Part shown: in pieces, positions 14,753 to 57,962 of the stretch
Numbering within the stretch: position 1 is the first letter of the stretch
How the letters are laid out: each line of letters starts with the position of its first letter
Virus record (IMG/VR): IMGVR_UViG_3300033144_005525
Location: 63,402-127,401 of that record
Length of the DNA stretch: 64,000 bases
Reading direction: 5' to 3' (one strand)
From: a virus
Program-made: the position numbers and the translations under genes
Notes under the pieces: model-generated
Database searches by the model: none
Seen by the model: only the letters and a program-made list of their open reading frames with translations
Told to the model about the DNA's origin: nothing

Positions 14753-14763
14753 AGGAGAAGACC

Positions 14764-33880: not shown

Positions 33881-35215
33881 TCAAGGCATGAAGGCGCGAG
33901 CTAGAGCGACCTTCTCCTGAGCTGGAGCTGGCTGCCCCTGCTGCTGTTGTCCTTGCTGATCCTTCTGTTGATCTGCAGGACTCTTGGCGTTGGGTGAGTT
34001 CGGATTCGTGGGCTTGTTGAACGGCTGCGGGGTGTTCATGGCCTTGATGGCCTCGTCCAGAGTGGCCGAATCCGCCTTCTGCATCTCTGCGACGAACTTC
34101 TGCACCTGAGCAGGGTCGTTCATCTGAATACCTGTCTGCTGCTCGATCTCCTCGAGCTTCGGGGCCCAGCGAGCCATGGTCTCCGGATCCACGCTCGGGT
34201 CGACTTGCTGGATCTTCTGGTCGGGAGGCACTGGGGGCTGAGCTTCGCCCATTGGGCCAGACTCGGGGCCCATTCCACCAGCTTCGGGGCCCATGCCGCC
34301 CATGCCCATCTCTGAGCCTGCGTCCGGATGCCTGGCAGCCTCCACGAGCTCCATCATGTTGCCCTGGGCCGACGGAGGTGTCTGGGAAGGCGCCATGGGA
34401 GACGGCTTGTAGCGGTTGGCAGGAGACTGCTGGACGGCGGCTCCGGGCATGGGAGCCATCCCACCCTGAGCTGGGTCCGGGGGAGGCATGGCAGGCATAG
34501 CGGCGTCCTGAGCCCCTCCCATACCACCAGCCGCTGGGTTGCCTCCACCAGCACCCATCAAAGCAACCTTGACCAGCTCCAGGTCGGGCACCCAGTTGCG
34601 CTCAGCCAGCTTGCGGAGCACCAGATCCTGGATGTCAATGTGAAAAGAGCTAGCCGTCTTGACAAGCTCAGCTGGCCCATGACCCGCGGCACAAGAATAG
34701 AGAGACAGGGTGTCCTCGTCCAACCGGTGACCTGCAGCTACCTTCTGCAGGTCGTGGTCCAGGAGAGTGTAGAACCGGGCCTCTAGCAGAGCGTCATCTG
34801 CATTGAGGCCTAGTACTCCCGCCGCCTTGTGAAACACGGTCTCATCGACAGGAAGGCTGCCGCCCCAGCGAGAGAATACGGCAGTTGCTAGTTCTTGATC
34901 CATGATTCCAGCCCTCTTTTCCTTCTGGCTGATTCGTCCGGCTGCGAGTCCTGCTCCACCAGCTCCTACAGAACCTACAGCGATACCTTTACGGTAACCC
35001 TTGCCTATTCTGTACTTCTCATTACTCCAAGCATCCATCTGCTCCATCTTCTTCTTGATGGATGCTATCGCGGACGGATCGTTAGTAGCTGCCTCAACAC
35101 TCTCCCTCACACCGATGGGATGAGGCTTCTTGGCAGCTGGAGGAGGTGGACCAACTACTCGCTTTGCCTTGCCAACAACTGTTCGGAGACCTTGCGCGAA
35201 AGGTTTAATGTCCAT
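33881..35215 (-). CDS. putative head/internal protein with KxA motifs and Pro/Met/Gln-rich C-terminus
   Basis: KRA, KAA, KVA, KTA, KLA motifs; Gly-zipper N-terminal module. Confidence 0.6.
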   Translation of the reverse strand: MDIKPFAQGLRTVVGKAKRVVGPPPPAAKKPHPIGVRESVEAATNDPSAIASIKKKMEQMDAWSNEKYRIGKGYRKGIAVGSVGAGGAGLAAGRISQKEKRAGIMDQELATAVFSRWGGSLPVDETVFHKAAGVLGLNADDALLEARFYTLLDHDLQKVAAGHRLDEDTLSLYSCAAGHGPAELVKTASSFHIDIQDLVLRKLAERNWVPDLELVKVALMGAGGGNPAAGGMGGAQDAAMPAMPPPDPAQGGMAPMPGAAVQQSPANRYKPSPMAPSQTPPSAQGNMMELVEAARHPDAGSEMGMGGMGPEAGGMGPESGPMGEAQPPVPPDQKIQQVDPSVDPETMARWAPKLEEIEQQTGIQMNDPAQVQKFVAEMQKADSATLDEAIKAMNTPQPFNKPTNPNSPNAKSPADQQKDQQGQQQQGQPAPAQEKVALARAFMP

Positions 35216-35284
35216 CGATTCCAGCCCCTTGCAGGTAGTGAGTTACTAAATTAGTACCAACTAGTAACTAATTAGTAATCGGAC

Positions 35285-36004
35285 CTAGAAGCCCGAGACG
35301 GGGTTGAAGTCACCGCTGACGAGAGCCAGCGAGCTCACTGCGACCGGAACACCACGCTCGAACTGCATGGCAGCGTTCTCCTGGATCACAGTCCCGCCGG
35401 CGTCGGTGGCGATGGTGTGGGAGGGGATGTAGGCCTCTTCCAGGTAGATGGCCCCAACCGTGTCCTCGTTGGTGTCCCGGAAGTACATCAGGAGGCCGAT
35501 CGGCTGAGAGAACAGGTCCGAAGCGAGGTTCAGGAAGATGTTCTCGTAGCCTGCCGGGATCTTGACGTTGTGTGGGTTGGCGACAGTCGCCGGCGCCACG
35601 TTCTGGAAGACGAACGGGACGATGGTGGGCGGAAGGAGGTCCTGGTAGTAGGCGTAGAGCATCCGGAGGAGACTCGGCCCGTGATACATGACCCTGGACA
35701 GGGACACCTGGCCGACTGTACGACCAGAGATGAAGTAGGACCGCTCCGACCCAACTTCCCAGAACCGAGCAAACGACCGGTTGTGGGAGAGGTTGATGTT
35801 CTGGACCACGCCGATGGGCATGGCGAAGTCTTTGCCTGAGCCCTCCACCGACAGTGCTGCCGCAACCCCTGTAGCACCGCCTACATTGGCCAACCGAGGA
35901 GGCCCGGCTGCCAACATGGTGAATGCGGCGGACATGAACTGACCGTCCACCAGACCGCCTTGAACGTAGCGGTTGTATGGCTGCCATTCGCTGAGCTTTG
36001 CCAT
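35285..36004 (-). CDS. tail tube protein
   Basis: directly after the sheath; IGVVQNINLS.NR....WEVGS.RSYFI.G. Confidence 0.75.
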   Translation of the reverse strand: MAKLSEWQPYNRYVQGGLVDGQFMSAAFTMLAAGPPRLANVGGATGVAAALSVEGSGKDFAMPIGVVQNINLSHNRSFARFWEVGSERSYFISGRTVGQVSLSRVMYHGPSLLRMLYAYYQDLLPPTIVPFVFQNVAPATVANPHNVKIPAGYENIFLNLASDLFSQPIGLLMYFRDTNEDTVGAIYLEEAYIPSHTIATDAGGTVIQENAAMQFERGVPVAVSSLALVSGDFNPVSGF

Positions 36005-36023
36005 TGCTTGTCTCCTTCGGGCC

Positions 36024-39000
36024 TCAGATGACCAGAGTCAGTCGGATGTAGTTTGCCGGGAATGGGACATCCAAGGTCACGTCGACCAGCACGGTGTCCG
36101 GATTGTCTCGGTCCTGGATGAGGTTGTTCAGATCACCTCCCAGGATAACACCACCCTCAGTGAGGAACTGCAGCATTCCCTGAATGACCGTCGAGAGGGT
36201 GTCCAGGAAGGGCTGGGTGATGTTGAACGTACCGATGAAGTTCCGCAGACCTGTCCGCATGAACTTCGCCACGAAATCGACCACCTTGGTGATCGACAGC
36301 TCTCGGGACTCGATGGACGTGATGTCCGTGGAGAGCTGGTGCCGGCTGATGAGAGGGGTGCCGTCGGCATCCTGCATCAGGACGTAGGTGCCACCGGCCG
36401 CCATGATGTTGAGCTGGCGGACGGAGAACGTGTCGTTGGAGCCCTGGACCCCGGTGAACCCGGTCATGGGCAGGTTGGTGAAGCCCTGCTGTGGGGGATT
36501 GAATGCGATCATCCCCGACATGGCTGCACAGGCGTAGTAGGCGTCGATGACCTCATCGAGCCCACTGAGGGAGGCGATGACAGTATCCGGGAAGACCGAG
36601 AAGACCCTCCGGTTCTGGATTCCACCATTCCTGGCAGCAACGCTCGAGGCGACAGCATCCTTGTCCTGGAGCGTAGAGCCGGCGATGAGCAGCTGAGCAC
36701 CACGGACCTTCAGGGACCAGTCCGCATTCAGCACCGTCTCCGTGAGCGGAGTGAGGGTGTAGAAGGCGTCATCGTTGAAGCCCGAGGAGAACGAGACCCT
36801 GAGTGTGGCCAGAGACCCACTGAACGCGGCGACGCTGTACCGACGCAAGGAGCCCGACACAGTGACTTCGATGAACAGGTTTTCGTCTTCGTCGATGGCT
36901 TCGGCCGGGTTGATGCCATTCTCGACCAGAGACGATGACGGATTGACATCCAGCAGAAGCTGGTTGTCCGTGGCTGTGGAGTCCGAGGACAGGCCTGAGG
37001 AGACCACAGTATCGACGGCACGATCTGGGACCGTCGGGTTCTGGAGGAGGATCCTCTCACCCTTCTGATCTGCCCCCGACATGAAGTCGATGTGAGTGCG
37101 GAAGATCTGGAAGACCGTCTCATCGTGCGTGAGAGGCGCAATGGCGTAGACCTCTTGGCTCTCGATGAAGTTGGTGACCTCTGCGTACCCGATTGCTGTT
37201 CCTTCCGGAGCAGCCGCAGTGGCCTCACCCACACCCAGGCCCTTGCAGGCAATTCCTGGAGCGTTGATGAGCTGGAAGAACATCGCCAGACCCAGCGGGT
37301 TGCCCGAATTGATCGGATTGAGAACCGACTGGAGGGTAGTGACGTCACTCAGGGTGATGACTCCCGGAGCGGCTGCACGAGGGGACACATCCAGACGAAG
37401 GGCCGTGTACTGGATGTAGACGTCTGCATCACCGGGACCAAATGGGTCACCTGTGACTGCACTGCGCAGGATCTCCGCACCCACCAGGGCATTGCCCGAC
37501 TGGTCGATCTGGAAGTCTGCGTTGGGACGACCGGAACCGCTGTCGTCCATGTTGCCTGTCGAGAGACCCAAGGCAGAGTATGCCTGGATGTTCACAGTGT
37601 CGTCGATGACCTCGACCCTCGAAGCAGCCCCCTCGAGCGGACTGGTGAGGACCATCCTGTCAAGTAGACCGCCGCCAATGGCGGCCACAGTGAAGCCAAC
37701 AGTGGCGTTGATCTCATCAACAGCGTCATCGAGAGAGTCACTGGTGAACACGACCGTGTAGATCTGGGGACGGTCGTTGAAGCGGAGCTTGAGGATCTGA
37801 GCGGCCAGATTCTCCTCACCGAGGTCCTCGTCCAAAGAGACGAACAGAATATCGGCGTCGTCTACAACCCCAATCGCCGTGGAGGCAGCTCCGATTCGGA
37901 TACCGACCAATGAACCAGAGGCAACAGTGGTGAAGACGAGCTTGTCTACGTTGTTGCTGACGAGGAACGTGGTGGGTAGCGTAGCTCCGTCCCAGTCGGC
38001 GGCGGTGTTGATAGCTGCCAACAGAGTTGCGATGTCTGCGTAGGCTGAGCCGGTGGTGGAGAACGTGAAGGTACGTGTACCAGCCGTCCATGTGACTCCA
38101 CCATCATTGGTCTGCTCAATGACGATGGTTTCGCCAGTGGTCTCGTTGAACGGGAACATCTGCGTGCCACCAGTAATGGCAGCGACGATATCGACGAACT
38201 CGACATCTGAGCCTGTGTCGGAGGCAGCAGCGATCCCCAGAGCAGTGAGTGCAGTGGACGAGGCCTTCAGCTGCAGAACGTGGGAGGCACCAGTGGTATC
38301 CACCGTGAGGCGAAGCTCTCCACCGTCATCCGTGGGAACCACACCAGCGATGTTGGTTCCGATGGCCGATACCACATCGGACATGGCGGCAAAGGGACCA
38401 CCGGTGAAGGTGAATGTGTCCTCACCCTGAGACACACCGTCGATCGTGACCTCGGTGATGAGAGTGAGTCCGGCCAGGGCGAACGGACCACCAGGAGACG
38501 TGGTGCCAACAAGAGTAGCTGCAGTCGCTACTTCTCCACCGATGGAACCTGTGAGTGTGGCTGCAGTCGCTGCGACGTTGTCTTCAGCGATGTTCCGGGC
38601 CTTGAACCAGCCGTAGCGGGGGGCGAACGGAACTCCTGCGAAGAGGGTGTTGAGGTCGCTGTCGTCGTAGACCGCCGTGAGGACGTTGCCATCATCATCG
38701 AAGGTGGACAGGGACGTGTTGATGATGCCGAGCTTGAAGCGACTGGCCTCGACACGCTGAACCTCTGCTGTCGAGTTGGGTCGGGTACCGTCTGCAACGT
38801 AGTAGTCCCCTACCTGAAGATCGATGGACCCAGCACCCGTGAAGATGATGTCCGCAGCGACTGCCTCTGCGTAGAGGTCTGCACTGTTGGAGTCCAGGCC
38901 AATCTGACCGAAGGACATCTCGGTGGTTCCGGACGTCAGGAACGACGCAGATACCGAGTCCTCGAGGTAGACGCCCTGGCTGAAGACGATGAAGGGGGAC

Positions 39001-39737
39001 AGCGTGGTGTTGTTGGACTGGTCTTCCGGGTGGAAGCCTGCGGCCGTGACCCGGTACTCGACGCTATCGCTGATTGCACCGAGGTCCGTGTTGGCAGAAC
39101 CACCAGGACGGACAGTCACCGAAGATGAAGCCCCCCAGATCAGGGAAGCGATCTGTACTCGATCGACGGCTCCGTTGTTGATGAGAGTCGCAACGGTTGA
39201 ACCAACTGCGGCGTTGATTTGGTCGGCGATCTGCTGTGCAGTGAGGAAACCACCACCCACTGTAGCGAACGTGACGATGACATCGTCCGACGTGTTCAGT
39301 GGTGCACGCTCATCGATAGCGAAGACGAGGATCTTGCCATCCAGGTCCAGACCAGCACCGCTGATCTCCAACGTGCGGAAAGCAGCCCGACGTGCTTCGT
39401 TGTGGGCTGTGAGGAAAGCAGAACCAGGATCTCTGTCGAGCTCCGACAGCGAACCGCCAAACAGAAGGGCCAGACGAATCGTGGCCTCTTCGACATCGAC
39501 TTCCTGGATGTTCCCTCGAGGGGACGGGAAGGCACTCTGCCCGATGGTCTGTGGGAGCTGGTTGTAAGCCCCCTGTCGAGCATCTGTGTTGATGAGACCA
39601 TCGGAGTCTACGAACTCCACGATCTCTTTTGCCGGGCCAGTGACGAAAGGAACCAGGGTGGGCTGAACGATTGTCGGGGCGGCTGCCTCGAATTCCTGGA
39701 TGACTTGTACGCCTGGACGTGGAAGCTCGGCTGCCAT
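36024..39737 (-). CDS. tail sheath protein with multiple inserted domains
   Basis: N-terminal RPGVQVIQE; C-terminal ELSITKVVDFVAK...V.VTLDVPFPANYIRLTLVI. Confidence 0.88.
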   Translation of the reverse strand: MAAELPRPGVQVIQEFEAAAPTIVQPTLVPFVTGPAKEIVEFVDSDGLINTDARQGAYNQLPQTIGQSAFPSPRGNIQEVDVEEATIRLALLFGGSLSELDRDPGSAFLTAHNEARRAAFRTLEISGAGLDLDGKILVFAIDERAPLNTSDDVIVTFATVGGGFLTAQQIADQINAAVGSTVATLINNGAVDRVQIASLIWGASSSVTVRPGGSANTDLGAISDSVEYRVTAAGFHPEDQSNNTTLSPFIVFSQGVYLEDSVSASFLTSGTTEMSFGQIGLDSNSADLYAEAVAADIIFTGAGSIDLQVGDYYVADGTRPNSTAEVQRVEASRFKLGIINTSLSTFDDDGNVLTAVYDDSDLNTLFAGVPFAPRYGWFKARNIAEDNVAATAATLTGSIGGEVATAATLVGTTSPGGPFALAGLTLITEVTIDGVSQGEDTFTFTGGPFAAMSDVVSAIGTNIAGVVPTDDGGELRLTVDTTGASHVLQLKASSTALTALGIAAASDTGSDVEFVDIVAAITGGTQMFPFNETTGETIVIEQTNDGGVTWTAGTRTFTFSTTGSAYADIATLLAAINTAADWDGATLPTTFLVSNNVDKLVFTTVASGSLVGIRIGAASTAIGVVDDADILFVSLDEDLGEENLAAQILKLRFNDRPQIYTVVFTSDSLDDAVDEINATVGFTVAAIGGGLLDRMVLTSPLEGAASRVEVIDDTVNIQAYSALGLSTGNMDDSGSGRPNADFQIDQSGNALVGAEILRSAVTGDPFGPGDADVYIQYTALRLDVSPRAAAPGVITLSDVTTLQSVLNPINSGNPLGLAMFFQLINAPGIACKGLGVGEATAAAPEGTAIGYAEVTNFIESQEVYAIAPLTHDETVFQIFRTHIDFMSGADQKGERILLQNPTVPDRAVDTVVSSGLSSDSTATDNQLLLDVNPSSSLVENGINPAEAIDEDENLFIEVTVSGSLRRYSVAAFSGSLATLRVSFSSGFNDDAFYTLTPLTETVLNADWSLKVRGAQLLIAGSTLQDKDAVASSVAARNGGIQNRRVFSVFPDTVIASLSGLDEVIDAYYACAAMSGMIAFNPPQQGFTNLPMTGFTGVQGSNDTFSVRQLNIMAAGGTYVLMQDADGTPLISRHQLSTDITSIESRELSITKVVDFVAKFMRTGLRNFIGTFNITQPFLDTLSTVIQGMLQFLTEGGVILGGDLNNLIQDRDNPDTVLVDVTLDVPFPANYIRLTLVI

Positions 39738-39747
39738 GGTTCTTCTC

Positions 39748-40533
39748 CTAGGTCTTCACCGTGATATCGATTGTACCGACGGGCTCCGGTGTAGTTCCAT
39801 CTATAGGCACAGAGGTACCAGCTATGGGAACACCTCTGATGGTGGGTATTTTCGAATAGACCTCTCTCACTCGAGCTGAGGTGATGTGTGCCTCTTGAGC
39901 AGAGATCTCCAAAGACATATGTGCTTCGATTCCCTGCACTAACGGGGCATTCGTAGCAACAATTCTCTCAGTCCATTGAAAGAAAAATGGGCTGGCCACT
40001 ACCACATTAACCAGCTCAGAGTCGGCTTCTGGATTCACCAAAGCTCCGGGAGGGGACTCTGAACTGATGGAGATTTCGTCTCCGATCTTGTGAATACGGT
40101 TTCTCTGCAACAGACGTTTGAACGTCCGGATGTGCCGCATCACGATCCAGGCGACTTTCTGAGCCTCCAGACCTTCCCTAGCCATGCAGTTGATGGTCAT
40201 CGTGCATGGGATGAGATCGGTATGTTCTCTCTGCCCAGTGCTCCCATTGACCGAACGTACGTTGTCCAGAGATAGATTGGCGAATTGTGCAGGACCTCTA
40301 GTGACTACGATGGCAGGACGCTGATCGATAGTGTCTCGAGGGATCGGCGCCTGCGCCGTAATCATAATCTCAGAGTCCACCTCGTTGGTGTCCCATCGAT
40401 AACACCCAGAGGGGAACTGCTGGAAGAGTCCCTGTAGGAACAGTAAGTACACCTTCGTGAAGTGCAGGAAGGGGTCTTCTCCTATTCCTTGTGGGAGAGG
40501 AACTCCTGGTGGTGCACTTCGTTCAGCGGTCAT
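39748..40533 (-). CDS. putative tail completion/terminator protein
   Basis: position upstream of the sheath; RPAIVVTRG, TINC..REGLEA. Confidence 0.55.
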   Translation of the reverse strand: MTAERSAPPGVPLPQGIGEDPFLHFTKVYLLFLQGLFQQFPSGCYRWDTNEVDSEIMITAQAPIPRDTIDQRPAIVVTRGPAQFANLSLDNVRSVNGSTGQREHTDLIPCTMTINCMAREGLEAQKVAWIVMRHIRTFKRLLQRNRIHKIGDEISISSESPPGALVNPEADSELVNVVVASPFFFQWTERIVATNAPLVQGIEAHMSLEISAQEAHITSARVREVYSKIPTIRGVPIAGTSVPIDGTTPEPVGTIDITVKT

Positions 40534-40874
40534 TGGGGAGATTTGGCAGAAAGGCCTTCATCGACCTTCTTCCTGTACTTGCTCCCAAGTATCGCAGCAA
40601 GACCCCCAGCTATGGGAAGACCCCATCGAACAAGCCGTAACTTTGAGGTTGTGATAGGTGGTTTGGCTCGCATAAAGCGGTTCAAACCTTTGTGCCGCAT
40701 CAGCAGTTCAGAAGCCCCGACGCCGACGCCTGTACCTAAAGCAGCAGGCCCTACGGTCTTCAAAGCACGGAGCACTCGCTGTTTGTTGGACTCCCCCTCG
40801 GCCGCGGCGCCGATCTTGGAGAGCTCATCCAACAGTGCCGCGGGGGCGGTATCCGTAGACAGCCAAGAGGGCAT
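40530..40874 (-). CDS. small Gly-zipper cargo-like protein
   Basis: RBS GGAG; LLDELSKIG leader; two hydrophobic Gly-rich helices. Confidence 0.55.
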   Translation of the reverse strand: MPSWLSTDTAPAALLDELSKIGAAAEGESNKQRVLRALKTVGPAALGTGVGVGASELLMRHKGLNRFMRAKPPITTSKLRLVRWGLPIAGGLAAILGSKYRKKVDEGLSAKSPQ

Positions 40875-41727
40875 TTTCGTCTTCTCCATGATCATCGGTG
40901 TGTTGAGGATTGGTGAAGTTGCGCTCTTCTGCAAACTGTTGATTCGCCAGATCCGTCAAGTTGATGGGGAGCTTGTACTCTACATCGCCTTTCGGGATGT
41001 GGTGAATAGAGAGCTCTTGTCGTACCACCGAACGTAGTCTCTCCGTACCCGACCTTGTCACCACCCTCCATCTCTTGTTCTCCGGCTCTACGATGATGTC
41101 TTTGGGCTTGATCGGAGGATAGGAGATGAGACGAGCAGAGGTGTTCTTCGGCTGCTGCTCTCCCTTGATGGCAGTATTCGATGGAGAATCCGGCTCTGGA
41201 TCGATCTGGATGTAAGTCTCAATGGGAGAGAGGAACCCACCGAGATAGCCAGTGTCGAAGCATGTGATGCACATCGACCTAGTTCTTCGATTCATCGTGA
41301 CGTCGAAGCAACCACACTTAGGACCAAAGGTACGAACAGGAAACAGCCAACACCTACGTCCGATGAGTTGCCGGAAGAGGACATCCTCTTGTCGTTGAAT
41401 CTCCAGAGAGATTAGGTCAGGCTCCGCCATCAGAGAGGCGGCTCCGATGACCTCCTCACTACTGGTTGGGATGTGGACGATCTTCAGCTTGTAGAAGATC
41501 TTGCGCCACTTGTGGAGCAAGTTGACACTGAAGTCACGGAACGAGTACTGGTCCTGAAAAGGCCCGGCGATCTGATCAAAGGGACCTTCAGGAGACTCGG
41601 ATCGTAGAACGAAGAAGTTGTAGGCCGTGATGACGTCCTGAGCATCACCGAAGTCGGAGATTTCCCAGAACAGATCGATGTGGTCCAGGTCGAAGCTTCG
41701 AGCTACGAACTTTGTGACCGTGAGCAT
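40825..41727 (-). CDS. putative neck/head-closure protein with Zn finger
   Basis: CGC...CITCFDTGYLGGF; DIIVE...RWRV. Confidence 0.6.
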   Translation of the reverse strand: MLTVTKFVARSFDLDHIDLFWEISDFGDAQDVITAYNFFVLRSESPEGPFDQIAGPFQDQYSFRDFSVNLLHKWRKIFYKLKIVHIPTSSEEVIGAASLMAEPDLISLEIQRQEDVLFRQLIGRRCWLFPVRTFGPKCGCFDVTMNRRTRSMCITCFDTGYLGGFLSPIETYIQIDPEPDSPSNTAIKGEQQPKNTSARLISYPPIKPKDIIVEPENKRWRVVTRSGTERLRSVVRQELSIHHIPKGDVEYKLPINLTDLANQQFAEERNFTNPQHTDDHGEDENALLAVYGYRPRGTVG

Positions 41728-41730
41728 GTT

Positions 41731-42693: not shown

Positions 42694-42699
42694 AAAGGG
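42650..42699 (-). other. programmed -1 ribosomal frameshift signal (C CCU UUC plus pseudoknot)
   Basis: X XXY YYZ heptamer just before UAA; stems UGGGG/CCUCA and GCCG/CGGC. Confidence 0.7.
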
Positions 42700-43907: not shown

Positions 43908-43916
43908 GATTTCCTC

Positions 43917-45503: not shown

Positions 45504-45507
45504 GGCT

Positions 45508-46038: not shown

Positions 46039-46047
46039 CGTTGTCTC

Positions 46048-46194: not shown

Positions 46195-46217
46195 TACCAA
46201 CCCCCATAGAAGCCATT

Positions 46218-47030: not shown

Positions 47031-47039
47031 AGTAACAGG

Positions 47040-47555: not shown

Positions 47556-47558
47556 TGG

Positions 47559-48020: not shown

Positions 48021-48030
48021 GAGGGGCCCC

Positions 48031-48498: not shown

Positions 48499-48513
48499 AT
48501 TCAGTTTCGACGA

Positions 48514-49635: not shown

Positions 49636-49687
49636 GGTTGCTTCCTTTCTCTATCTCTTCTGTCAGGTTGCTAAATCAGCGCCCGAA

Positions 49688-50158
49688 CTAGATGGTGATC
49701 TGGAATCCACCGGTGTGGATGAAACGGACCTTGCCACCGCCCGGAAGGCGTGTGACCTGCCCAACCACGAAGTGCTGACCGGCGCCAGCAGCCTCGAGGA
49801 GACCCTGCTTGGTCAACGTGTCGATGGTGACATCGTCGACGACCAGGAAGTCACCGACGACGAGGCCAGTGAGATCTGCGATCGTGGTCTCTGCCTCATA
49901 GGTCCCACCGAACAGGACGATCGACTTCTCGATGGCCTGGGTGTCGTAGCGGCCTCGCTCGGCGAAGACCGGCCACGTGAGGGAAGCGGCTGCTCCGGAG
50001 CCACGGGCCAGCTGGTAGCTGGCGTTGAGACCCAACCACTCACCGTCGAGCAGCGGGTTGGCGTTGTTTGGGTTGAGCAGAGCAGGTACTGCGAGGGAGA
50101 AGTCCCGCCGGGCGACCGGCAGAAGCTCTGAAACCAAGTTGAAGTTCGGTGCGGACAT
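49688..50158 (-). CDS. capsid decoration/cement protein
   Basis: 156-aa beta-rich protein immediately upstream of the MCP. Confidence 0.55.
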   Translation of the reverse strand: MSAPNFNLVSELLPVARRDFSLAVPALLNPNNANPLLDGEWLGLNASYQLARGSGAAASLTWPVFAERGRYDTQAIEKSIVLFGGTYEAETTIADLTGLVVGDFLVVDDVTIDTLTKQGLLEAAGAGQHFVVGQVTRLPGGGKVRFIHTGGFQITI

Positions 50159-50198
50159 TGCGTTATTCTCCTATCGAAGTCGTGTGGTCCGGGGTGAA

Positions 50199-50549
50199 TT
50201 ACCCGTCGAGGAGGCCCGAGGCGAATGCAGAAGCTGCATCCGATGGGTTCCCCACGTGGTCCGAGACCGCCGCCAGTTTGATCTGAGGCGCGGACATGTC
50301 TATGGCCTTCTCGACCACATCGAGATCGTCGTGTTCCAGGAGGGAAGCGACTTTCTCTGCATGAGTGGTGGTGGTGTCGAGTTGCTTCGCCTCCATGTTG
50401 GATGCGATCTTCTCGACTCGGGCTGTCCGCTCGTAAGCGGCAACCTTCTCCTTCAGGCCCTGATTCTCTTCGGACAGAGCTCGAAGAGCCGGCCCCACCT
50501 GAGCGATGGTGGCCGCCACTTGGTCACTGGCCAGTTTGGTCTTCGACAT
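50199..50549 (-). CDS. scaffold-like coiled-coil protein
   Basis: five KxA motifs; helical. Confidence 0.55.
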   Translation of the reverse strand: MSKTKLASDQVAATIAQVGPALRALSEENQGLKEKVAAYERTARVEKIASNMEAKQLDTTTTHAEKVASLLEHDDLDVVEKAIDMSAPQIKLAAVSDHVGNPSDAASAFASGLLDG

Positions 50550-50596
50550 TTGTGCTCCTTCTTCCCGTCTGTCCTTGTGAGGTCCTGAAGAGGGCC

Positions 50597-52054
50597 TTAG
50601 TAGGCCCCACCGCCGCCCATGCCGCCCGGCATATCACCCATGGAGTTCTTCTCGGCCGCAGCCTTCAGCTTGCACACCTTGCAGGTGCCCTCGCCTCCGC
50701 ACTCACAGCCTTCCATGGCTACTTTGCCCGTCTGAGCGAACTGGTTGACAGTCTCTTGGGTGATGCGACCTTCAGCAGCTGCCTGCTTGATAATCGCGCT
50801 TGCACTTGCCTCTGCGATCTTCACCCCGGCCTGGCCGGCATTACGCAGTTGCTCTCGCAGTTTGGAATCCGTCGAAGGATTGAATGCCGGCTCGGTCAGG
50901 ACTTCCTTCATCTGCTTGCCCTGAGGCTTCTTGGCATCTGCCTTCGTGTAGTCGATGGCTGCCTGGTTGCCCTGCACGTGAGTGCGTTGTGGGTTCCCGT
51001 AGCCGGAGCCATCGGTAGCATTGCTGGGCACCTGCTCGGCCTGGTGGGCGTCCATCACACCATCACCGACCAGAGGGCCGCCGCCCTTGTCACCGCTGAT
51101 CTTCGCCTTCATGACGTCTTCACCGGCGAGCTTGCGTAGGATCTTGTCCCTGGCGATTTCGGCGGCTGTCTTTTCTTTGGAGCCTTCGCCTCCGGCAGTC
51201 TTGTTCTTCTTACCGCCACCCATGATGGCACTTGCACCTGCTGCACCACCTGCGACGCCGGCAGCGGGAACTCCGTAGCCGATGGCACGTGCAGTGTTGG
51301 GATTCATCCTGGTTGCAGCACCCTTTCCAGCTCGGGTGACTCCCTCGGTGACCTTGCGGCCCAATCCCTGGGCAGCGTCATCGACGAACCGAGCGGCGTT
51401 ACCGAGCATTCCTGCAGTCTTGGCACAGGCACACTTCTCGCCGGCCATCTTGCAGTTCCCGCACATGGCTTCCTTCTGAAGAACCTGGCTACCAGCCCTC
51501 TTCAGGAGATCGACCATGGCGGTCTTGCCGCCGGCATGGAACGGCCCGGCCGGTGGGTAGGTGGCTGTGGGAACTGATCCGGAGCCCTGCCCAGGAGCCG
51601 AATCCATGTCGTTCTTCATCTGGGTAGCTCCACCGGGGAGACCGGCGGTGCCTTCGGGAGTGGACGCCTGCGAAGCGGAGGCATCCTCACCCTTCGGGGA
51701 GTCCTTCTTGTACTTCTGGGTGCCCGGCATCGACGCCTGGACAGAGAGCTGCTCCGGAGTCGTGACTGCCGGGGGCATGTCCACACCAGCCATCTTGGCC
51801 ATGGCGTCACCGAGTACTCCACGGTTCGGGGTCTCGATACCGTCGATGTTGCCGGCGATGAAATCGCAAGCAGAAGCCAGCTTCTCGACGAAGGCAGGAT
51901 CGGTCCAGGACTGCTCCTCTTCCTGATCACCTTCATCGGTCTCTGGAGTCTCCGGCTTCTCGGGGAGATCTTGTTGACTGGCCAGCTTCTCGGTTGCCCG
52001 ATTCACTACGCCGGCGATCATCTCCTGAAGGGGAAGGTTGCTGATGGACGACAT
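50597..52054 (-). CDS. scaffold/internal head protein with many KxA motifs
   Basis: more than ten KxA sites; one Gly-zipper module. Confidence 0.6.
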   Translation of the reverse strand: MSSISNLPLQEMIAGVVNRATEKLASQQDLPEKPETPETDEGDQEEEQSWTDPAFVEKLASACDFIAGNIDGIETPNRGVLGDAMAKMAGVDMPPAVTTPEQLSVQASMPGTQKYKKDSPKGEDASASQASTPEGTAGLPGGATQMKNDMDSAPGQGSGSVPTATYPPAGPFHAGGKTAMVDLLKRAGSQVLQKEAMCGNCKMAGEKCACAKTAGMLGNAARFVDDAAQGLGRKVTEGVTRAGKGAATRMNPNTARAIGYGVPAAGVAGGAAGASAIMGGGKKNKTAGGEGSKEKTAAEIARDKILRKLAGEDVMKAKISGDKGGGPLVGDGVMDAHQAEQVPSNATDGSGYGNPQRTHVQGNQAAIDYTKADAKKPQGKQMKEVLTEPAFNPSTDSKLREQLRNAGQAGVKIAEASASAIIKQAAAEGRITQETVNQFAQTGKVAMEGCECGGEGTCKVCKLKAAAEKNSMGDMPGGMGGGGAY

Positions 52055-52063
52055 TGATTCTCC

Positions 52064-52330
52064 TTAGCTCTTCACAACGGGTGGAGCCGACACTGGCTGC
52101 TGGCCGGCCATCGGGCTCGGCGTCGGGACAGAGTGGACCTTTGCGTAGGCAGACGGAGTCTTCGAGAGGACTCCACCCTTCTTCGGCTGTTTCGGACGAA
52201 TCATTCCCAGGCCTGTCGGAGGTGGAGGCGCCATGGTCTGCACCTGCCCGGCCATCGGAGTAGGCATGTTGGCTGTCTTGATCATAGACAGCTCATTTGA
52301 GAATGCTCGTATCTGGTTCACGTTGAACAT
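52064..52330 (-). CDS. small Pro-rich head cargo-like protein
   Basis: AFSNELSMIKTA leader. Confidence 0.55.
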   Translation of the reverse strand: MFNVNQIRAFSNELSMIKTANMPTPMAGQVQTMAPPPPTGLGMIRPKQPKKGGVLSKTPSAYAKVHSVPTPSPMAGQQPVSAPPVVKS

Positions 52331-52339
52331 TTCCGCTAG

Positions 52340-53101
52340 TTAACGTCGTCTACTACTGACCCTCGAGTACATGTCTCGAGCACCGTGGACATAGGCCCGT
52401 CCAAGCTGCTTACGCTCTTTTTTGCGGTGGCCTTTTACAGCACCCTTACCGGCTGTGAGGGCACCAGCACCGGCTGCTGCACGAACTCCAAGGGACCTCA
52501 GAGCTTCAGATCTGGTGGCCTTGTCCTTGATACCGGCAACTCCAAGGTTACCTGGTCGAGGTCCCGCACCTTCGAAGGTCACAGTCTTCTTACCGGGAAC
52601 GTGCTCAGTCACCTTGGATGTTGTGGGCTTCTTGCCAAAGAACTTAGCCAAGGTGCCTGGTTGTTTGGTGACAGTCGTTGTCTTGGGGACCAGCGTCGAG
52701 GTGGTCTGTTTGAGGTTTCCCTTGGCCCCACCCATGAATAGCTGGCCGACACGACGAGCTGCATCACCAGCAGTGCTGGCAATCTTCTGGAATTCATCGC
52801 TGAAGCCGCCTAGCTTGGCCATTTCATAGGAAGTGGGCATGTCAGATAGCTCCATTGCTTTTTTCTCTTTGGCGATCATCTTCGCCCCGATTTTCTTCGG
52901 GTCGGCACCACGTACCCAGGACTTCGTTCCGGTACTGTGCTTGGCTTTGGCGACTCTTTTTCCAAGAGTGGTCCCATACTTCTTGGGACTCTTGCCCATC
53001 GCATGTGACTGCTGAGTGGCGATCGCCCACGACGTGCTCTCTCCCATGTCCGGATTCTTTGCCCGGATGTGAGCTGCTCGGTCGTGTATCCACTTGGGCA
53101 T
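52340..53101 (-). CDS. basic head cargo-like protein
   Basis: WAIATQQ N-domain; GFSDEFQKIA; C-terminal Gly-rich helix. Confidence 0.6.
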   Translation of the reverse strand: MPKWIHDRAAHIRAKNPDMGESTSWAIATQQSHAMGKSPKKYGTTLGKRVAKAKHSTGTKSWVRGADPKKIGAKMIAKEKKAMELSDMPTSYEMAKLGGFSDEFQKIASTAGDAARRVGQLFMGGAKGNLKQTTSTLVPKTTTVTKQPGTLAKFFGKKPTTSKVTEHVPGKKTVTFEGAGPRPGNLGVAGIKDKATRSEALRSLGVRAAAGAGALTAGKGAVKGHRKKERKQLGRAYVHGARDMYSRVSSRRR

Positions 53102-53137
53102 TCATCTTGCTTGTTTACAGTCGTTTACAACTCGGTA

Positions 53138-53163
53138 GGTGGGGGCCCCGAAGAGCCCCCACC
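53138..53163 (-). terminator. stable hairpin with cUUCGg tetraloop (terminator or mRNA stabiliser)
   Basis: GGTGGGGGCTC TTCG GGGCCCCCACC; no U-run. Confidence 0.5.
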
Positions 53164-53176
53164 ATTCCGGGGCGCT

Positions 53177-53794
53177 CTACTTGATGTAGCCGTTCTCGTG
53201 TAGGAACTGGATCGCCATTTCCTGTGCACGGGATTCCGCCAACTTCTCGACGTACTGGGCTGCGTTCTGGGGGATCTCACCACCGGCAGCGGGATCGGCC
53301 TGAGCAGCCTGCTGCTCTTCCGGCGGAACGACGGTACCGCCGAGGGCGGCGATCGCCTGGGTGAGGGGACCCTGTGCCGTCTTCTCGGCTGGCGGGCACT
53401 CACATTTCGCCTTGTCGCACTTGTCGCACTTCTTCTCTTCGGCTGCTGCCGGAGGGAACGGTGGCGGTCCACCCTCAGAAGCGATCTTCGACAGCTCCTG
53501 GGTGTAGGAGTGAGCCATGACCCTACCGAGGAAGTCGGCCTCGGCGAATTTCGCCTGAGCTTCTTCTTCGCCTGCGGGAACCTGTGCTTCAGGAGCGGCC
53601 GTGCCAGGCTGAGCTTCGTTGTCAGAGACAACCTGCTGAGCGAGTGAGTCGAGCTGCTCTTCGTTGAGACCAGAGAGGTCGATCCCCTCCGACTCGGCGA
53701 GCTTCTCGAGCATCATGGCCTGGGCGGTCTTCTCGAGGTCATTTTCGGAACCAGCAGCGTTGGTGCCATAGACGTTTGCGAGCCATTCATCCAT
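53177..53794 (-). CDS. acidic scaffold-like protein with KxA motifs
   Basis: EKTA, EKLA, SKIA; RBS AAGGAG. Confidence 0.65.
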   Translation of the reverse strand: MDEWLANVYGTNAAGSENDLEKTAQAMMLEKLAESEGIDLSGLNEEQLDSLAQQVVSDNEAQPGTAAPEAQVPAGEEEAQAKFAEADFLGRVMAHSYTQELSKIASEGGPPPFPPAAAEEKKCDKCDKAKCECPPAEKTAQGPLTQAIAALGGTVVPPEEQQAAQADPAAGGEIPQNAAQYVEKLAESRAQEMAIQFLHENGYIK

Positions 53795-53852
53795 CGTTTT
53801 TCTCCTTGGAGTAGAGCGCTACCGGAACCATCTTCGAGATGGGATTCCACCT

Positions 53853-55976
53853 CTAAGCAGCCGCTAGTACGCCCGATTGGGCCAGAGCCTCCGAATGGAA
53901 GTCCCTGTCTTCGTAGTGAGCCCCAACCAGGTATGCCAACGACTCGGGGCCCAAGACGTTGACACTAGCAGACTTCGTGATCCCGCCGGCGAAGGCCTGC
54001 ACCATGCTCTCACCCGCCGTAGCGAGCATGAGCTGGGGATCAGAAGCCATGGAACGTTCTACAACGCTGGCCTTCTTTACGAGAGAGCGTCGATAGCCAT
54101 TGTACAGCTCCGCCACCTTCTCCAAGAACTTGTCCCCACGAATCGGAGTGGGGGAACTCATACGAACATTCAACTGAGACACCAACGAAGCCCTCTTCTC
54201 CAGAGCGGGGGCTGCGATGGAACGACCGGGAGCAAACTGCATCAACGACGATTTCAATTCTGGATCCACCGAGGCTTCGTTGATTTCGATGGAGTCGTCA
54301 ATCTCTGTGGAGGGAGCAAAGACCTGATTACGGCCCTCGAGATCCTCTGCTAGAGCTTCCTCGCCGATCTTGGTGAGCACCATGTGCTGGAACTCTTGGG
54401 GCTTGAGAACGATCCCCAACATAGCTGCTGTCGAAGTGGAGACGTCGAACGCATGTTTCGACATCTGCTTGAGGACATTCTTTGGAAGAGTCCCCTCTGC
54501 TCTTTCCAACTTGGGCAACATAGCTTTCCGGAACGGTCCGGCTGGTATACTTTTTATAATCTCGCCAGCCTTCGAGTGGGAAGCGCTTTTTTCTCCGGGG
54601 GTTACCAAGAACGCCTCGGCCAGTTCGTCAAAGCTGCCACAGGAGTTGTCTGAGGCCTTCTTCGAGTGACCCTGCAGATACGAGGAGAAGGCCTGTGGAG
54701 TCATCTCCGTGGCTCCGCCAAACAGCTTGGCAGGGATATGTTTCAGGTACATAAGGGTCGCCGCCTTCTTCGACGAGAAACCCAGCATGACCTTGTCTTC
54801 GTCGTGCGTTCCGTCCTTCTTCAGCTGTCGGACGACGTAAACATCGGATCCTGCCTGCGGCTCTACGGCCAGGTAGATATCTACGGTCTCCCCGTCTTTG
54901 CCCAGGGTCTTGGGGATGTAACCGTAAGCGGCCTTCATCTCCCTCGACCACTTCTTGCCTTTGTCGTCCGTACCGGAACGTGTGTCGCCGGCGTCGACCT
55001 CGATCTTCAGAGTATGCCCATCGAAGGTGGTTTGGCGTTTAACTGCCTTACCAGCGGTCTTTTCGTAGATGGGGAAGCTCTCTGTGGCCACCTTCTGCAT
55101 GGCCCACTGATCCGCTAGATCCTGAGCTCTGAGCTCGGTGGGAGCAGAGAAGGCCTCCCCCACTTCTGCACTGGAGCGGGAAATTGAACAGAACTCCCCA
55201 AGACACTGCTGATTCTCCACACTGGCCAGCTTGGCAAGCATTTTGGCCGACTTGTCGGCGCCGATGAAGACGAAGCTGATGTCGAAGAACCTGGGGGTAT
55301 CGTTGCGGACAGCTACCTTGCGACCGTCCGGCAAGATCTTGTTCATCAGGAGCTTGGCGTCGTCGCAGTAGTCCTTGCGGGTCTTCGACTTGTGCCCACA
55401 TATCGTACATATGTCGTGGGGGACTTTGCAGCCCATCGACACATCCGGGAACTCCCCGTTGTCGATCCGGTTGATGACGTCTTCTGCCAGCCACTTCTTG
55501 CACAGAGCTCGGTCCAGATAGACCACAAGCTCGACGCGGTGCATCATGGGGTTCCACACCGCAATCTTCACCTCGCCGAAGGCCCTGCTCGGGTCCTTGT
55601 TGACGTGGTGCTTGTACGGGTAGGCGTTCATGAAGGAGGGAAAACCGTACTTCCAGGTTTTTCCCACCTTCTTCATCTCCTCCGGGGACATCTCATTCCA
55701 GTTGGGAGGAGAGTGAATCAGAGCGGCCTCAGGGAACAGGTCTCCGTTGACGTTGGATCCCCAGTACTCCCCGGCCCCCAAAGCGCTCACCAGGATGTAG
55801 ACGCCCTTGTCGGTAGGCTTCAGATCCTTGATGTAGCGTCGTACAGCTGGGTGCAGCTTTGAAGGCTTGGATGCAGCTGTCTTCTCAAGACCGTCCAAGA
55901 AGTCATGGCCCCAAAGGGGTTGGCAGAAGACATTCCCTTCGTCGTCCTGCCCTCTGAATTGGATCTGCTTGATCAC
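53853..55976 (-). CDS. prohead maturation protease with inserted inorganic pyrophosphatase-like domain
   Basis: N.NGD.FP, YKHH, DVSMGC (clan SH-like His/Ser); insert R.G.D..GK.W...M.A.YGYI..T.G.DG..VD.Y...DEDKVMLGF. Confidence 0.75.
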   Translation of the reverse strand: MIKQIQFRGQDDEGNVFCQPLWGHDFLDGLEKTAASKPSKLHPAVRRYIKDLKPTDKGVYILVSALGAGEYWGSNVNGDLFPEAALIHSPPNWNEMSPEEMKKVGKTWKYGFPSFMNAYPYKHHVNKDPSRAFGEVKIAVWNPMMHRVELVVYLDRALCKKWLAEDVINRIDNGEFPDVSMGCKVPHDICTICGHKSKTRKDYCDDAKLLMNKILPDGRKVAVRNDTPRFFDISFVFIGADKSAKMLAKLASVENQQCLGEFCSISRSSAEVGEAFSAPTELRAQDLADQWAMQKVATESFPIYEKTAGKAVKRQTTFDGHTLKIEVDAGDTRSGTDDKGKKWSREMKAAYGYIPKTLGKDGETVDIYLAVEPQAGSDVYVVRQLKKDGTHDEDKVMLGFSSKKAATLMYLKHIPAKLFGGATEMTPQAFSSYLQGHSKKASDNSCGSFDELAEAFLVTPGEKSASHSKAGEIIKSIPAGPFRKAMLPKLERAEGTLPKNVLKQMSKHAFDVSTSTAAMLGIVLKPQEFQHMVLTKIGEEALAEDLEGRNQVFAPSTEIDDSIEINEASVDPELKSSLMQFAPGRSIAAPALEKRASLVSQLNVRMSSPTPIRGDKFLEKVAELYNGYRRSLVKKASVVERSMASDPQLMLATAGESMVQAFAGGITKSASVNVLGPESLAYLVGAHYEDRDFHSEALAQSGVLAAA

Positions 55977-55984
55977 AGAGAGTG

Positions 55985-56683
55985 CTACTTCTTCACGCCT
56001 TCATTTTGCCAGTTACGCTCCGCTATGTTGGCCTCGGCCCTGAGCTTCCTATTCTGATGACCTCCGATTTCGAACTGCTGTGTCTGCTGAGCTTGGTCTG
56101 CAGCAGAAGGAGTCTGCTGCCAGGGCATACCACCTAGGGGTCTCGCGCCTCTGGCATCTTTGATGGCCTTCCTAGAAGACACCAAACCCTGCACCGATCC
56201 CAAATCTCCCTCTGGGAACTGGGACTGAGATCGAACGTAGGAACCTGCGACATTTGGATCAGAGGAGAACTCTGGATTGAAGCGATGCAGAGTGTTGAAG
56301 TGGGACTGTATGGCGACTGGATCCTCTTTCTTGAGGTCCGGATTTGCTTCCATCATCGCCTTGTAGTTGCGACTCTTGGTGATTCCTCGATGGGCCGCAT
56401 CGGCCAAATCACCAGCAAGACTGGCAGCTACACCAAGACCTGTGATGGTCGCTCCATACAGAGCTGCATCTCCAGCCTTGCTGCCCATGAATTTACCGAA
56501 ACCACTCTTGATGGCTCCCCCCACGGACGACATAGAGATGGCAGTCTTGATGATGTGGTCGAGCTCTCCAACGATCTGATCCCGGAACGGGCTCGATCTG
56601 ATCTCGGCCGCCGTCTTGAGTAGGAAGTCGTACTTGACCGGTTCGACCTCAGCAACCTTCTGCATCAATTCATGAGTATTCAT
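55985..56683 (-). CDS. head cargo-like protein with KxA leader and hydrophobic helix
   Basis: KVA, KTA, IKTA|ISMSSVGGAIKSG. Confidence 0.6.
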   Translation of the reverse strand: MNTHELMQKVAEVEPVKYDFLLKTAAEIRSSPFRDQIVGELDHIIKTAISMSSVGGAIKSGFGKFMGSKAGDAALYGATITGLGVAASLAGDLADAAHRGITKSRNYKAMMEANPDLKKEDPVAIQSHFNTLHRFNPEFSSDPNVAGSYVRSQSQFPEGDLGSVQGLVSSRKAIKDARGARPLGGMPWQQTPSAADQAQQTQQFEIGGHQNRKLRAEANIAERNWQNEGVKK

Positions 56684-56943
56684 CAGAACTTATGCCCTCG
56701 TAGCTTCAGTTCCTGGATCCGTGGATCGAACCCTCGGCTGTATTCTCTGGACTTACCCAGAGCACTACCAGCCACACCCACAGTGCCCAAAGCTCCGGCT
56801 CCAAACATCATGGGGCCCAATACCGGACCACCCAATCTCTTGGACCCGCGGAACATGGCCCCAACAACACTCGAGCTCTTCTCGAGCTCAGCTACTTGAG
56901 CTCTTAGCGTCGACTGATGCTCTGTAAGCTGCCGGAAGTTCAT
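56683..56943 (-). CDS. small Gly-zipper protein
   Basis: GAGALGTVGVAG; coupled to neighbouring genes. Confidence 0.55.
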   Translation of the reverse strand: MNFRQLTEHQSTLRAQVAELEKSSSVVGAMFRGSKRLGGPVLGPMMFGAGALGTVGVAGSALGKSREYSRGFDPRIQELKLRGHKF

Positions 56944-57962
56944 CGGAGAGACTGCAAGAATCCTTGTGTCTGCTCTCGACTCTTCTGGACCTCATCGAGA
57001 GCCAGAGCTGATTTATCCCGCTCATTTGCAGCCTTGACGATGCCAGAGAACGTTCGGAAGAGGGGATGGTCGGTGTTGACGACTCTGTTCATGGAGGCCG
57101 TCTTGCTCATCTCGCTCGAGCGTACGGCCCCCTCTTTCACCAGACGCTCAGCGACAGGCTTGAGGATCTGGAAGGCGAATCTGTGACTTGGGGCTGCCAG
57201 CTTCACGACCTGAGTGACTCCTGAAAGCCCAGAGCCTTCGGGGTTCAGACACTCGCTCTTGGCCGCCTGATAGAACTCTTCCTCGGCCTGCTTGAGAATC
57301 AGATCGAAGCACTCATGGGCTTCTTTCAGCTTCTCCTCGGTGGCTCGGAGACGCACATCTGCGTCATGTACATCGTGGATCGGGTCGGCGTGTAGCTCAT
57401 GATCCACCACTACCGGCGCCGCGGCCGCAGTCTTGGAAATTGGCTCACCTGTTCCCTCGACGCCAGATGTGTTGTCCTGGCGGCTGAATTCGGTGAAAGC
57501 AGACGAAAGGTCCTGGAAACCTTGGTCTGAGGACGGACTGGACTCGTACCCAGGGGGCTTCCTGTAGTTGCTGCCATCCCCAACCGCTGGGTGCCCAGAG
57601 GTCTTGCCCTGGGATGGTCCGTTGTTGAGGGTCTTCCCATCGTGATTCGGGGATCCTCCATCCTTGAGGTCTCGGATGATGACCCCAGGATCTGCCACAT
57701 CGAAGTGGACGTTCTTGTCCGCGCTGTCGGAATGCATCTTCTGGAATACGGCATTGTTGGCGAACTCGGAAATCCGCTTCACATGCTCGTTCTGTATTCC
57801 TGGGTACTCCGAAGCCAACTTCACGATCGATTCATTGAGAGACGTTTCGTCCTTCAAGAACCGCTGGGCCGCTTGTTTACCCAGTGTCTCCAGCAGCTCG
57901 GGACTCACTCCCTGGTTGCTAGATCCCCCCGTGAGCAATTGCTGCAGGATGTCTGTCGCCAT
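56940..57962 (-). CDS. head-region protein with KxA motifs
   Basis: LNESIVKLA...HVKRISEFAN; RBS GGAGG. Confidence 0.65.
   Translation of the reverse strand: MATDILQQLLTGGSSNQGVSPELLETLGKQAAQRFLKDETSLNESIVKLASEYPGIQNEHVKRISEFANNAVFQKMHSDSADKNVHFDVADPGVIIRDLKDGGSPNHDGKTLNNGPSQGKTSGHPAVGDGSNYRKPPGYESSPSSDQGFQDLSSAFTEFSRQDNTSGVEGTGEPISKTAAAAPVVVDHELHADPIHDVHDADVRLRATEEKLKEAHECFDLILKQAEEEFYQAAKSECLNPEGSGLSGVTQVVKLAAPSHRFAFQILKPVAERLVKEGAVRSSEMSKTASMNRVVNTDHPLFRTFSGIVKAANERDKSALALDEVQKSREQTQGFLQSLR

Follow-up and report, generated by a model that had tools for sequence, protein, structure and literature searches.

In phage T4, the head protease gp21 processes gp22, gp67, gp68, gp23, gp24 and the internal proteins, and its experimentally established cleavage motif is IxE/LxE. 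Here we describe a locus of similar design but different signal in an uncultured phage, within a 64,000-nucleotide stretch of DNA (the window) that comprises bases 63402-127401 of the 191,126-bp IMG/VR virus record IMGVR_UViG_3300033144_005525 (estimated completeness 91%). Several head proteins encoded there carry far more Lys-x-Ala (KxA) sites than their composition predicts, and one of them, a 707-amino-acid (aa) precursor encoded by open reading frame (ORF) 53853-55976, begins, as judged from its modeled structure, with a capsid-maturation protease domain. We consider it probable that the motif, for which we propose the form [L/M/F/I]-x-K-[T/L/I/V]-A-[S/A/G...] (Φ-x-K-x-A, with Φ a hydrophobic residue), marks recognition and cutting by the clade's own protease of gp21/assemblin fold, located at the N-terminus of this precursor. 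As in T4, the putative His/Ser enzyme is encoded beside scaffold and capsid genes, T4 gp21 is its best structural match, and a three-residue motif recurs in core or scaffold proteins and would end short N-terminal propeptides. The two differ in that T4 cuts after the Glu of (L/I)-x-E, whereas the signal here is Φ-x-K-x-A, and in that the enzyme of this phage carries a Cys-cluster insert and is fused to a variable middle part and a C-terminal domain of ~250 aa.

Among other phages, the systems most like this one are those of phiKZ (gp175) and SPN3US (gp245), which are likewise ~200-kb phages that package RNA polymerase (RNAP) subunits and process their head proteins extensively. SPN3US gp245 recognizes an AXE motif, processes head and ejection proteins at multiple sites, acts on propeptides that contain several motifs, and cuts itself (PMC10052503). 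Salmonella phage Arash, a cultured relative of the phage described here, also packages RNAP subunits (PMC10585845). In phiKZ and SPN3US, however, A-x-E is cut after Glu in a cleavage that has been measured, and the protease has no fused enzyme domain; here the signal is K-x-A, the protease is joined to a pyrophosphatase-like domain, and cleavage is predicted.

Herpesvirus pUL26 shows a comparable domain order, in which an N-terminal protease is joined through a linker to an assembly domain at the C-terminus, and its protease is of the same fold class (as in varicella-zoster virus, VZV, and human cytomegalovirus, HCMV). In pseudorabies virus the cut at the predicted sites YLQA-T and VQA-S follows Ala, and the predicted maturation site removes 37 C-terminal residues (PMC4498786). 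In the 707-aa precursor, the motif at K249 resembles the pUL26 release site and that at K668, 37 residues from the C-terminus, resembles the maturation site; by the same analogy the C-terminal domain is a putative scaffold. Herpesvirus sites differ in having the form (V/L)-x-A|S with no required Lys, in numbering two to three per precursor, and in bracketing no enzyme cargo in the linker. A further parallel comes from the sections on InPase domains in a study of the polyvalent proteins of phages and conjugative elements, which place these domains in virion-packaged polyvalent proteins and report an InPase-portal fusion (PMC5512222). In those sections, as proposed here, InPase forms part of a multidomain virion-associated protein that is delivered as one chain and later separated, but processing is credited there to an embedded zincin-like (MPTase) domain and here to the capsid protease (PMC5512222); Pfam finds no zincin-like (MPTase) domain in the 707-aa protein. 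The literature searched describes no K-x-A phage protease motif, no link of such a motif to a divergent gp21-fold family, and no fusion of a protease to a variable domain. Multi-site head processing is already known, and the variant at this locus is its K-x-A code, the link to a divergent gp21/assemblin-fold enzyme, and the fusion to a variable middle domain.

We measured motif frequency in a head set of 11 minus-strand ORFs (48514-57962; 3,041 aa) against 500 shuffles each of whole proteins, of 15-aa windows and of 8-aa windows, the last two keeping local composition. KxA occurs 64 times in this set against 27±5 in shuffled sequence, KxA followed by Ser, Gly or Ala (KxA[SGA]) 35 times against 7-8, EKxA 18 times against 2, and K[TLVIM]A[SGA] 24 times against 2.1 (z ~15). 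None of the 500 shuffles of any type matched the observed counts; AxK, KxxA, KA and AK, taken as controls, show no excess and at most a slight deficit. An unbiased scan of 1,600 residue pairs at gaps of 0-3 ranks KxA first in the head set (z 7.0), with no xE pair among the top over-represented pairs; CxxC and CxC rank second and third. In the 69 other ORFs of the window, KxA[SGA] appears 4 times where 8 are expected. A first-pass annotation of this DNA had proposed that a protease cuts after K-x-A in about 13 head-region proteins, and the enrichment that it predicted, both over shuffled sequence and over the remaining genes, is borne out for the head cluster.

The number of proteins involved is smaller than that annotation supposed, as about six in the window are enriched and several others that it named are not. 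KxA[SGA] is significantly over-represented in the 340-aa protein encoded at 56940-57962 (5 observed, 0.5 expected; extended motif, 5 against 0.16), the 707-aa precursor (9 against 1.6), the 485-aa protein at 50597-52054 (12 against 2.1) and the 116-aa protein at 50199-50549 (5 against 0.5). The 444-aa protein at 33881-35215 has 4 sites against 1.2 (p 0.03), or 3 against 0.3 for the extended motif (p 0.0025), and the sixth, the 205-aa protein at 53177-53794, is enriched as a family (see below). By contrast, counts match composition in the ORFs starting at 42690 (2 against 2.1), 43917 (3 against 3.4), 41731 (2 against 2.0), 52340 (1 against 1.3) and 55985 (1 against 0.6; 1.5-fold across its orthologues), and the ORF at 52064 has no KxA[SGA] site and a single KxA (KTAN). 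Pooling the 13 ORFs of 33881-48435 gives mild enrichment of KxA (44 against 30), with GxxxG and PxP as the top pairs. We considered the glycine-zipper proteins of 41731-45545 as part of the system and rejected them, since their KxA counts equal those expected from composition. All three are basic and rich in Lys, Ala and Gly; GxxxG is the dominant over-represented pair (78 against 47), and Pfam weakly matches a Gly zipper.

In the genome as a whole, the extended motif clusters in a few late proteins, namely those of the window ORFs at 56940, 53853 and 50597 and a few outside the window. Near ORF starts, at residues 10-40, it is 1.7 times commoner than expected (27 occurrences across the genome against 15.8), a bias that would suit short N-terminal propeptides, and the carriers of these early sites include a contiguous run of late genes. 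The related suggestion that sites fall where composition switches from acidic to cationic survives only weakly: the mean charge change across sites (±20 aa) is positive (+0.97, p 0.04), but its absolute size does not exceed that at random positions (p 0.42).

When the same pair scan is applied to T4 gp20, gp67, gp68, gp21, gp22, gp23 and gp24, IxE ranks first, LxE 10th and KxA 38th; in the T4 core proteins alone KxA falls to rank 72. Recovery of the gp21 motif shows that the scan finds protease motifs, and that head or scaffold proteins do not generally have an excess of KxA. In the relatives of our phage, KxA is the top pair both in Arash gp218-226 (z 5.4) and in the head ORFs of Vibrio phage D69 (51 against 22, z 6.0). 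The two phages share the extended motif context seen here, and in both there are matching sites near the start of the protease and at residue 27 of the major capsid protein (MCP). Bacillus phage G encodes a more distant homologue of the protease, gp19, that is annotated as a head maturation protease (PMC12484599). There the KxA signal is weak (rank 4, z 2.8), and the gp19 protease domain is flanked by LVKTAA, LEKVAS and LLKIAS.

Conservation was assessed in 80 related IMG/VR loci, gathered with an alignment of protease homologues as the query; a single protease sequence retrieved none. Homologues of the protease domain number 1,919 at E <= 0.001, many of them on 180-220-kb contigs. Five orthologue families of these loci together supply 2,398 KxA sites, whose logo has M, F, L or I two residues before the Lys (K-2), E or V directly before it, then K, T/L/I/V, A, S/A/E and A. 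The ratio of observed to expected KxA[SGA] is 7.2 for the 340-aa protein (63 orthologues), 7.6 for the 116-aa protein, 4.8 for the protease, 3.7 for the 205-aa protein (53 orthologues) and 3.1 for the 485-aa protein, compared with 0.7 for the large terminase (TerL), 0.9 for the MCP and 0.7 for the protein encoded at 63216. The reversed pattern is enriched in none of the orthologue families of the 80 loci.

Many individual sites are 70-100% conserved in alignments whose mean identity is 28-38%. In the 340-aa family (mean identity 29%), K29 is kept in 94% and K287 in 87% of orthologues; in the 485-aa family (28%), K58 is kept in 100%, K308 in 91%, K412 in 94% and K444 in 83%. The corresponding values are 95%, 70% and 73% for K22, K31 and K82 of the 205-aa protein, 50-80% for the sites of the 116-aa protein (K5 and K35, 80% each) and 52% for K46 of the 232-aa protein. 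Judged from these sequences, the KxA motif is functional and not compositional, as its position is kept in orthologues of ~30% identity.

We next turn to the putative enzyme. The N-terminal domain of the 707-aa precursor, folded alone, is modeled with a predicted local distance difference test score (pLDDT) of 82. VIA-align against 48,161 PDB representatives places T4 gp21 first (5jbl; Z 9.1 over 132 aa at 3.0 Å), followed by the VZV protease (Z 6.7) and the HCMV protease (Z 5.2). Foldseek agrees, with 5jbl as its top match (probability 0.97, E 0.012) and several herpesvirus proteases next. A Foldseek search with the whole 707-aa model returns pyrophosphatases only, for which reason the N-domain was folded separately. 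His123, His124 and Ser180, the last within a DVSMG motif, are invariant in 74 homologues and in 38 locus-derived sequences, and the His-Ser spacing of 56-57 residues is presumably similar to that of gp21. The earlier protease assignment, with the Ser of VSMG as its candidate catalytic residue, is therefore supported at the level of fold. A profile of the protease domain finds nothing below E 1 among PDB sequences. Shortly after the candidate catalytic Ser lies an invariant cluster of Cys190, Cys193 and Cys204 (CxxC...C-x-H, aa 190-206), an arrangement that resembles a small zinc-binding insert and recurs in gp94 of mycobacteriophage Catera.

An AF2 model of the precursor, built from the 74 homologues, is confident over residues 38-238 (protease), 309-438 (InPase) and 477-704 (helical), and disordered over 1-37, 239-308, 439-476 and 656-671. 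All of the KxA sites that the first-pass annotation quoted in this ORF are present. Residues with pLDDT <50 make up 22% of the chain yet hold seven of its 11 KxA[SGAT] sites, which sit on either side of the folded domains: K32 precedes the protease and K249 directly follows it, K295 and K306 precede the InPase, K439 and K463 follow it, and K668, the seventh, lies near the C-terminus. K32 and A34 are invariant in the 74 homologues; the 38 locus-derived sequences likewise all have K32, and at least 90% of them have A34. Counterparts of this site are GLTKQAAA at residue 30 of Arash gp222, LEKSAA at residue 27 in D69 and LVKTAA at residue 43 of phage G gp19. K249, L250 and A251 are each at least 90% conserved in the 74 homologues, as are K463, A465 and K668. 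The motif itself is found at the K463 column in 66 of 73 homologues, at K439 in 47 of 73, at K634 in 71 of 74 and at K668 in 45 of 74.

The middle of the precursor is its variable part. In the 74 homologues, length is nearly constant for the N-part (234-285 aa) and the C-part (229-260 aa), but the middle may have anywhere from 44 to 442 aa, in a bimodal distribution. Pfam labels in the middle comprise InPase, InPase with other domains, other domains, or none. In our phage the Pfam InPase family (PF18823) matches residues 306-434 (E 2e-35). Some homologues have RRM, cupin or uncharacterized Pfam domains alongside or in place of InPase. Several of the homologues P0023, P0041, P0106 and P0108 carry Hint or LAGLIDADG domains, that is, inteins in the protease gene. 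The protease is encoded in the head module with TerL and MCP, an order kept in Arash and the related loci, and the Arash homologue, gp222, has been detected in the virion proteome.

From this enrichment, conservation, fold, linker placement and co-occurrence we infer cleavage, the enzyme responsible, the bond cut and the fate of the fragments, in the following scheme. The 707-aa precursor would be built into the procapsid, with its C-terminal domain probably serving as an anchor, as in protease-scaffold fusions. Once activated, the protease would cut itself at the linker sites K32, K249, K306, K439, K463, K634 and K668, freeing the protease, the middle InPase domain and C-terminal pieces. The neighboring 340-, 205-, 485- and 116-aa proteins would be cut into fragments of 10-130 aa, and the MCP N-terminus, the 444-aa protein and motif-rich proteins encoded outside the window may also be substrates. 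Acidic or coiled-coil neighbors are probably scaffold or core components whose fragments would leave the head, while folded inserts such as InPase would remain there and possibly be ejected with the DNA.

As for the bond, we favor on balance a cut after Ala over one after Lys. The preference rests on the non-prime information in the motif (Ala at P1, Lys at P3, a hydrophobic residue at P5), on the Ala|Ser rule of herpesviruses, and on the occasional replacement of Ala by Ser. A cut after Lys would, by analogy, mirror the hydrophobic-x-charged geometry of T4. Since trypsin cuts after Lys, tryptic proteomics would miss a phage cut at that position.

Several observations weigh against the proposal that the clade's own protease cuts at Φ-x-K-x-A. 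Pfam and PHROGs match no protease family in the 707-aa protein; we take this to mean a new sequence family within the gp21/assemblin fold. Many individual KxA sites are lineage-specific, so that the expectation of conserved sites holds for many of them but not for all. Some sites lie inside confident folds, namely K403/K404 in InPase and K594 in a helix; not every motif match can therefore be a cut site, and these, according to the model, are probably not cut. In the MCP of close relatives Ala is mostly followed by Glu (K[IV]A-E), and its 26 N-terminal residues are unusually well conserved. In the cluster C mycobacteriophages (Catera), whose protease homologues are still more distant than that of phage G, KxA ranks only 20th. 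The logo's hydrophobic residues at K-2 and K+1, three apart, would also suit an amphipathic helix.

This last property bears on two rival explanations. The motif could instead be a docking or capsid-targeting signal that binds the procapsid interior, the scaffold or the C-domain of the protease, loading its carriers without any cutting. Its amphipathic character suits a binding helix, and it is conserved, gene-specific and enriched at residues 10-40, where targeting sequences sit. We nevertheless regard docking alone as unlikely, because up to 17 copies per protein and sites bracketing every domain in disordered linkers are hard to explain in this way, and because the identical scan picks out the protease motif in T4, whose targeting peptides themselves end in the cleavage motif, so that both roles coincide.

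Alternatively, the pattern could be a by-product of amphipathic or coiled-coil helices rich in Lys, Ala and Glu, and be recognized by nothing. The K-2 and K+1 positions fit heptad a and d, and several of the carriers are helical or of low complexity, with a weak DivIC match in the 116-aa protein. Yet the enrichment persists under 8-aa shuffles with AxK, KxxA and KA flat or depleted, the invariant K32 and A34 lie inside a disordered segment, other sites occupy linkers between globular domains, and the T4 core proteins show no KxA excess; we therefore judge this explanation very improbable. Least likely of all is cutting by another enzyme, either a host protease or the C39-like peptidase of a neighboring 758-aa polyprotein that itself has KT[A/S] joints, as C39 peptidases cut after Gly-Gly, unlike K-x-A, the motif goes together with the gp21-like family in Arash, D69 and the 80 loci, and invariant sites flank the gp21-like domain itself.

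Cutting by the phage's own capsid protease thus remains our preferred reading, and it differs in emphasis from the first-pass annotation, which had envisaged a polyprotein strategy for ejected cargo. That idea fits only the protease-InPase precursor, in which the InPase is the sole effector-type domain in a chain with the protease and the C-domain, and the neighboring polyprotein outside the window; the proteins densest in motifs, which are those of 205, 116, 485 and 340 aa, look more like scaffold or core. The position and composition of the 205-aa protein (net charge -22) and of the 116-aa protein (sites 12-30 aa apart) point to a scaffold or core role, with cutting into small pieces, rather than to cargo. 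Their proposed chopping and expulsion would resemble the fate of T4 gp22 and of the SPN3US propeptides (PMC10052503). The DivIC match in the 116-aa protein is to a coiled-coil family. The 485-aa protein has a Gly-rich C-terminus and two Cys-rich knots, C-x2-C-x7-C-x-C near aa 198-210 and C-x-C-x6-C-x2-C near aa 450-461. In the 444-aa protein, a possible further substrate on sequence grounds, a run of sites at K100, K130, K158 and K186 is spaced by ~28 aa.

Near the MCP N-terminus one candidate KxA site is present, and Arash and D69 have LVKEAG and LTKEAG, respectively, at residue 27, but the MCP family as a whole is not enriched. We regard this site as uncertain because Glu follows Ala in most close relatives and because of the conserved N-terminus noted above.

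More tentatively, and with less confidence than we place in the cleavage motif itself, we suggest that a very large uncultured clade of ~180-220-kb phages may have a capsid protease of novel Φ-x-K-x-A specificity, probably cutting after Ala in the manner of herpesvirus assemblin. Its precursor would double as an exchangeable cargo carrier, and any domain placed between the two conserved cut sites would be set free in the head and ejected into the host. The characterized large-phage systems (T4, phiKZ and SPN3US) all cut after Glu, and a Lys-x-Ala code would be a new specificity. If true, sequence alone could reveal which proteins the clade as a whole packages and ejects, and mature ends, propeptides and packaged candidates could be predicted for thousands of uncultured ~200-kb phages as well as for the Arash and D69 group. 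The protease-InPase fusion suggests a simple route for loading exchangeable enzyme domains into a capsid. The idea of cleavage is directly testable in Arash, for which a laboratory strain of Salmonella serves as host.

The features discussed here lie in a late operon that forms a minus-strand block running from 61048 to ~33881 (Table 1). Between the 205-aa protein and the MCP are encoded, in order, proteins of 253, 88, 485, 116 and 156 aa, and neck and tail genes come after the MCP. Among the genes of the head module that separate terminase from capsid (33881-61048), neither Pfam nor PHROGs recognizes a portal.

Table 1. Features of the head region and of the 707-aa precursor, in bases of the window.
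Feature	Position	Strand	Remarks
TerL (large terminase)	59219-61048		late operon
340-aa protein	56940-57962	minus	homologue of Arash gp220 (BLAST match)
232-aa protein	55985-56683	minus	homologue of Arash gp221; candidate sites K23 and K46 only
Small 86-aa protein			late operon, between the 340-aa protein and the 707-aa precursor
707-aa precursor	53853-55976	minus	protease, variable middle (here InPase) and conserved helical C-terminal domain
LEKTAA (K32-A34)	55872-55889	minus	ahead of protease domain; candidate autoprocessing site; pLDDT <50
Protease domain, aa 38-238	55263-55865	minus	gp21/assemblin fold (modeled)
His123/His124	55605-55610	minus	invariant in homologues
DVSMG with Ser180	55431-55445	minus	Ser invariant
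LAKLAS (K249-A251)	55221-55238	minus	just past protease domain, in disordered 239-254
YEKTAG (K306-A308)	55050-55067	minus	abuts InPase start at 309; pLDDT <50 over 305-308
InPase domain, aa 309-438	54663-55052	minus	type I pyrophosphatase-like; candidate released cargo
Post-InPase linker, HSKKAS (K439) and GEKSAS (K463)	54579-54668	minus	disordered 439-476
LVKKAS (K634) and ITKSAS (K668)	53964-54083	minus	C-terminal sites
Acidic 205-aa protein	53177-53794	minus	directly downstream of protease; 6 KxA
485-aa low-complexity head protein	50597-52054	minus	17 KxA; two Cys-rich knots
116-aa helical protein	50199-50549	minus	two genes upstream of MCP; 5 sites
MCP	48514-49635	minus	phrog_2522 match; 26-29% identity to Arash and D69 MCPs
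KEKVAA in MCP (KVA at 24-26)	49555-49572	minus	N-terminal candidate site
444-aa protein	33881-35215	minus	site run K100, K130, K158, K186

A megablast query of the phage collection with the head region gives no match, and cultured relatives in that collection are limited to Salmonella phage Arash (180.8 kb) plus the Vibrio phages D69, D181 and D148 (~187 kb). Identity to these relatives is 26-29% for the MCPs and 36-40% for the protease domains. Arash gp220, gp221, gp222 and gp226 follow the same gene order as the window. In Catera, gp94 (1,369 aa; 11833-15942 of the 31509-55964 stretch) has the protease-domain homologue (~30% identity) at its N-terminus, and one gene separates it from the major head protein, which is encoded downstream; QxM is the pair ranked first in this phage.

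Outside the window, 96 bases past its end, lies the gene for the 758-aa polyprotein (G000:C1:127497-129773), which combines an N-terminal C39-like cysteine peptidase with a second InPase, its parts separated by (E)KT[A/S] joints. Two further proteins, of 660 aa (131259-133241) and 478 aa (148622-150058), contain 12 and 13 KxA, respectively (p <= 0.002). Their KxA context is similarly hydrophobic, PHROG and Pfam searches recognize no family for either, and on sequence grounds both are candidate further substrates. The 660-aa protein, flanked in the genome by RNAP beta-prime-like and helicase genes, is a possible candidate for the missing portal.

Two other genes lie in the late region. The neck and tail genes harbor an inserted HNH endonuclease gene at 46218-47030, and an excisionase-like HTH_17 gene at 57999-58691 (plus) lies between the terminase and head genes on the strand opposite to the late operon; the latter is kept in 26 related loci.

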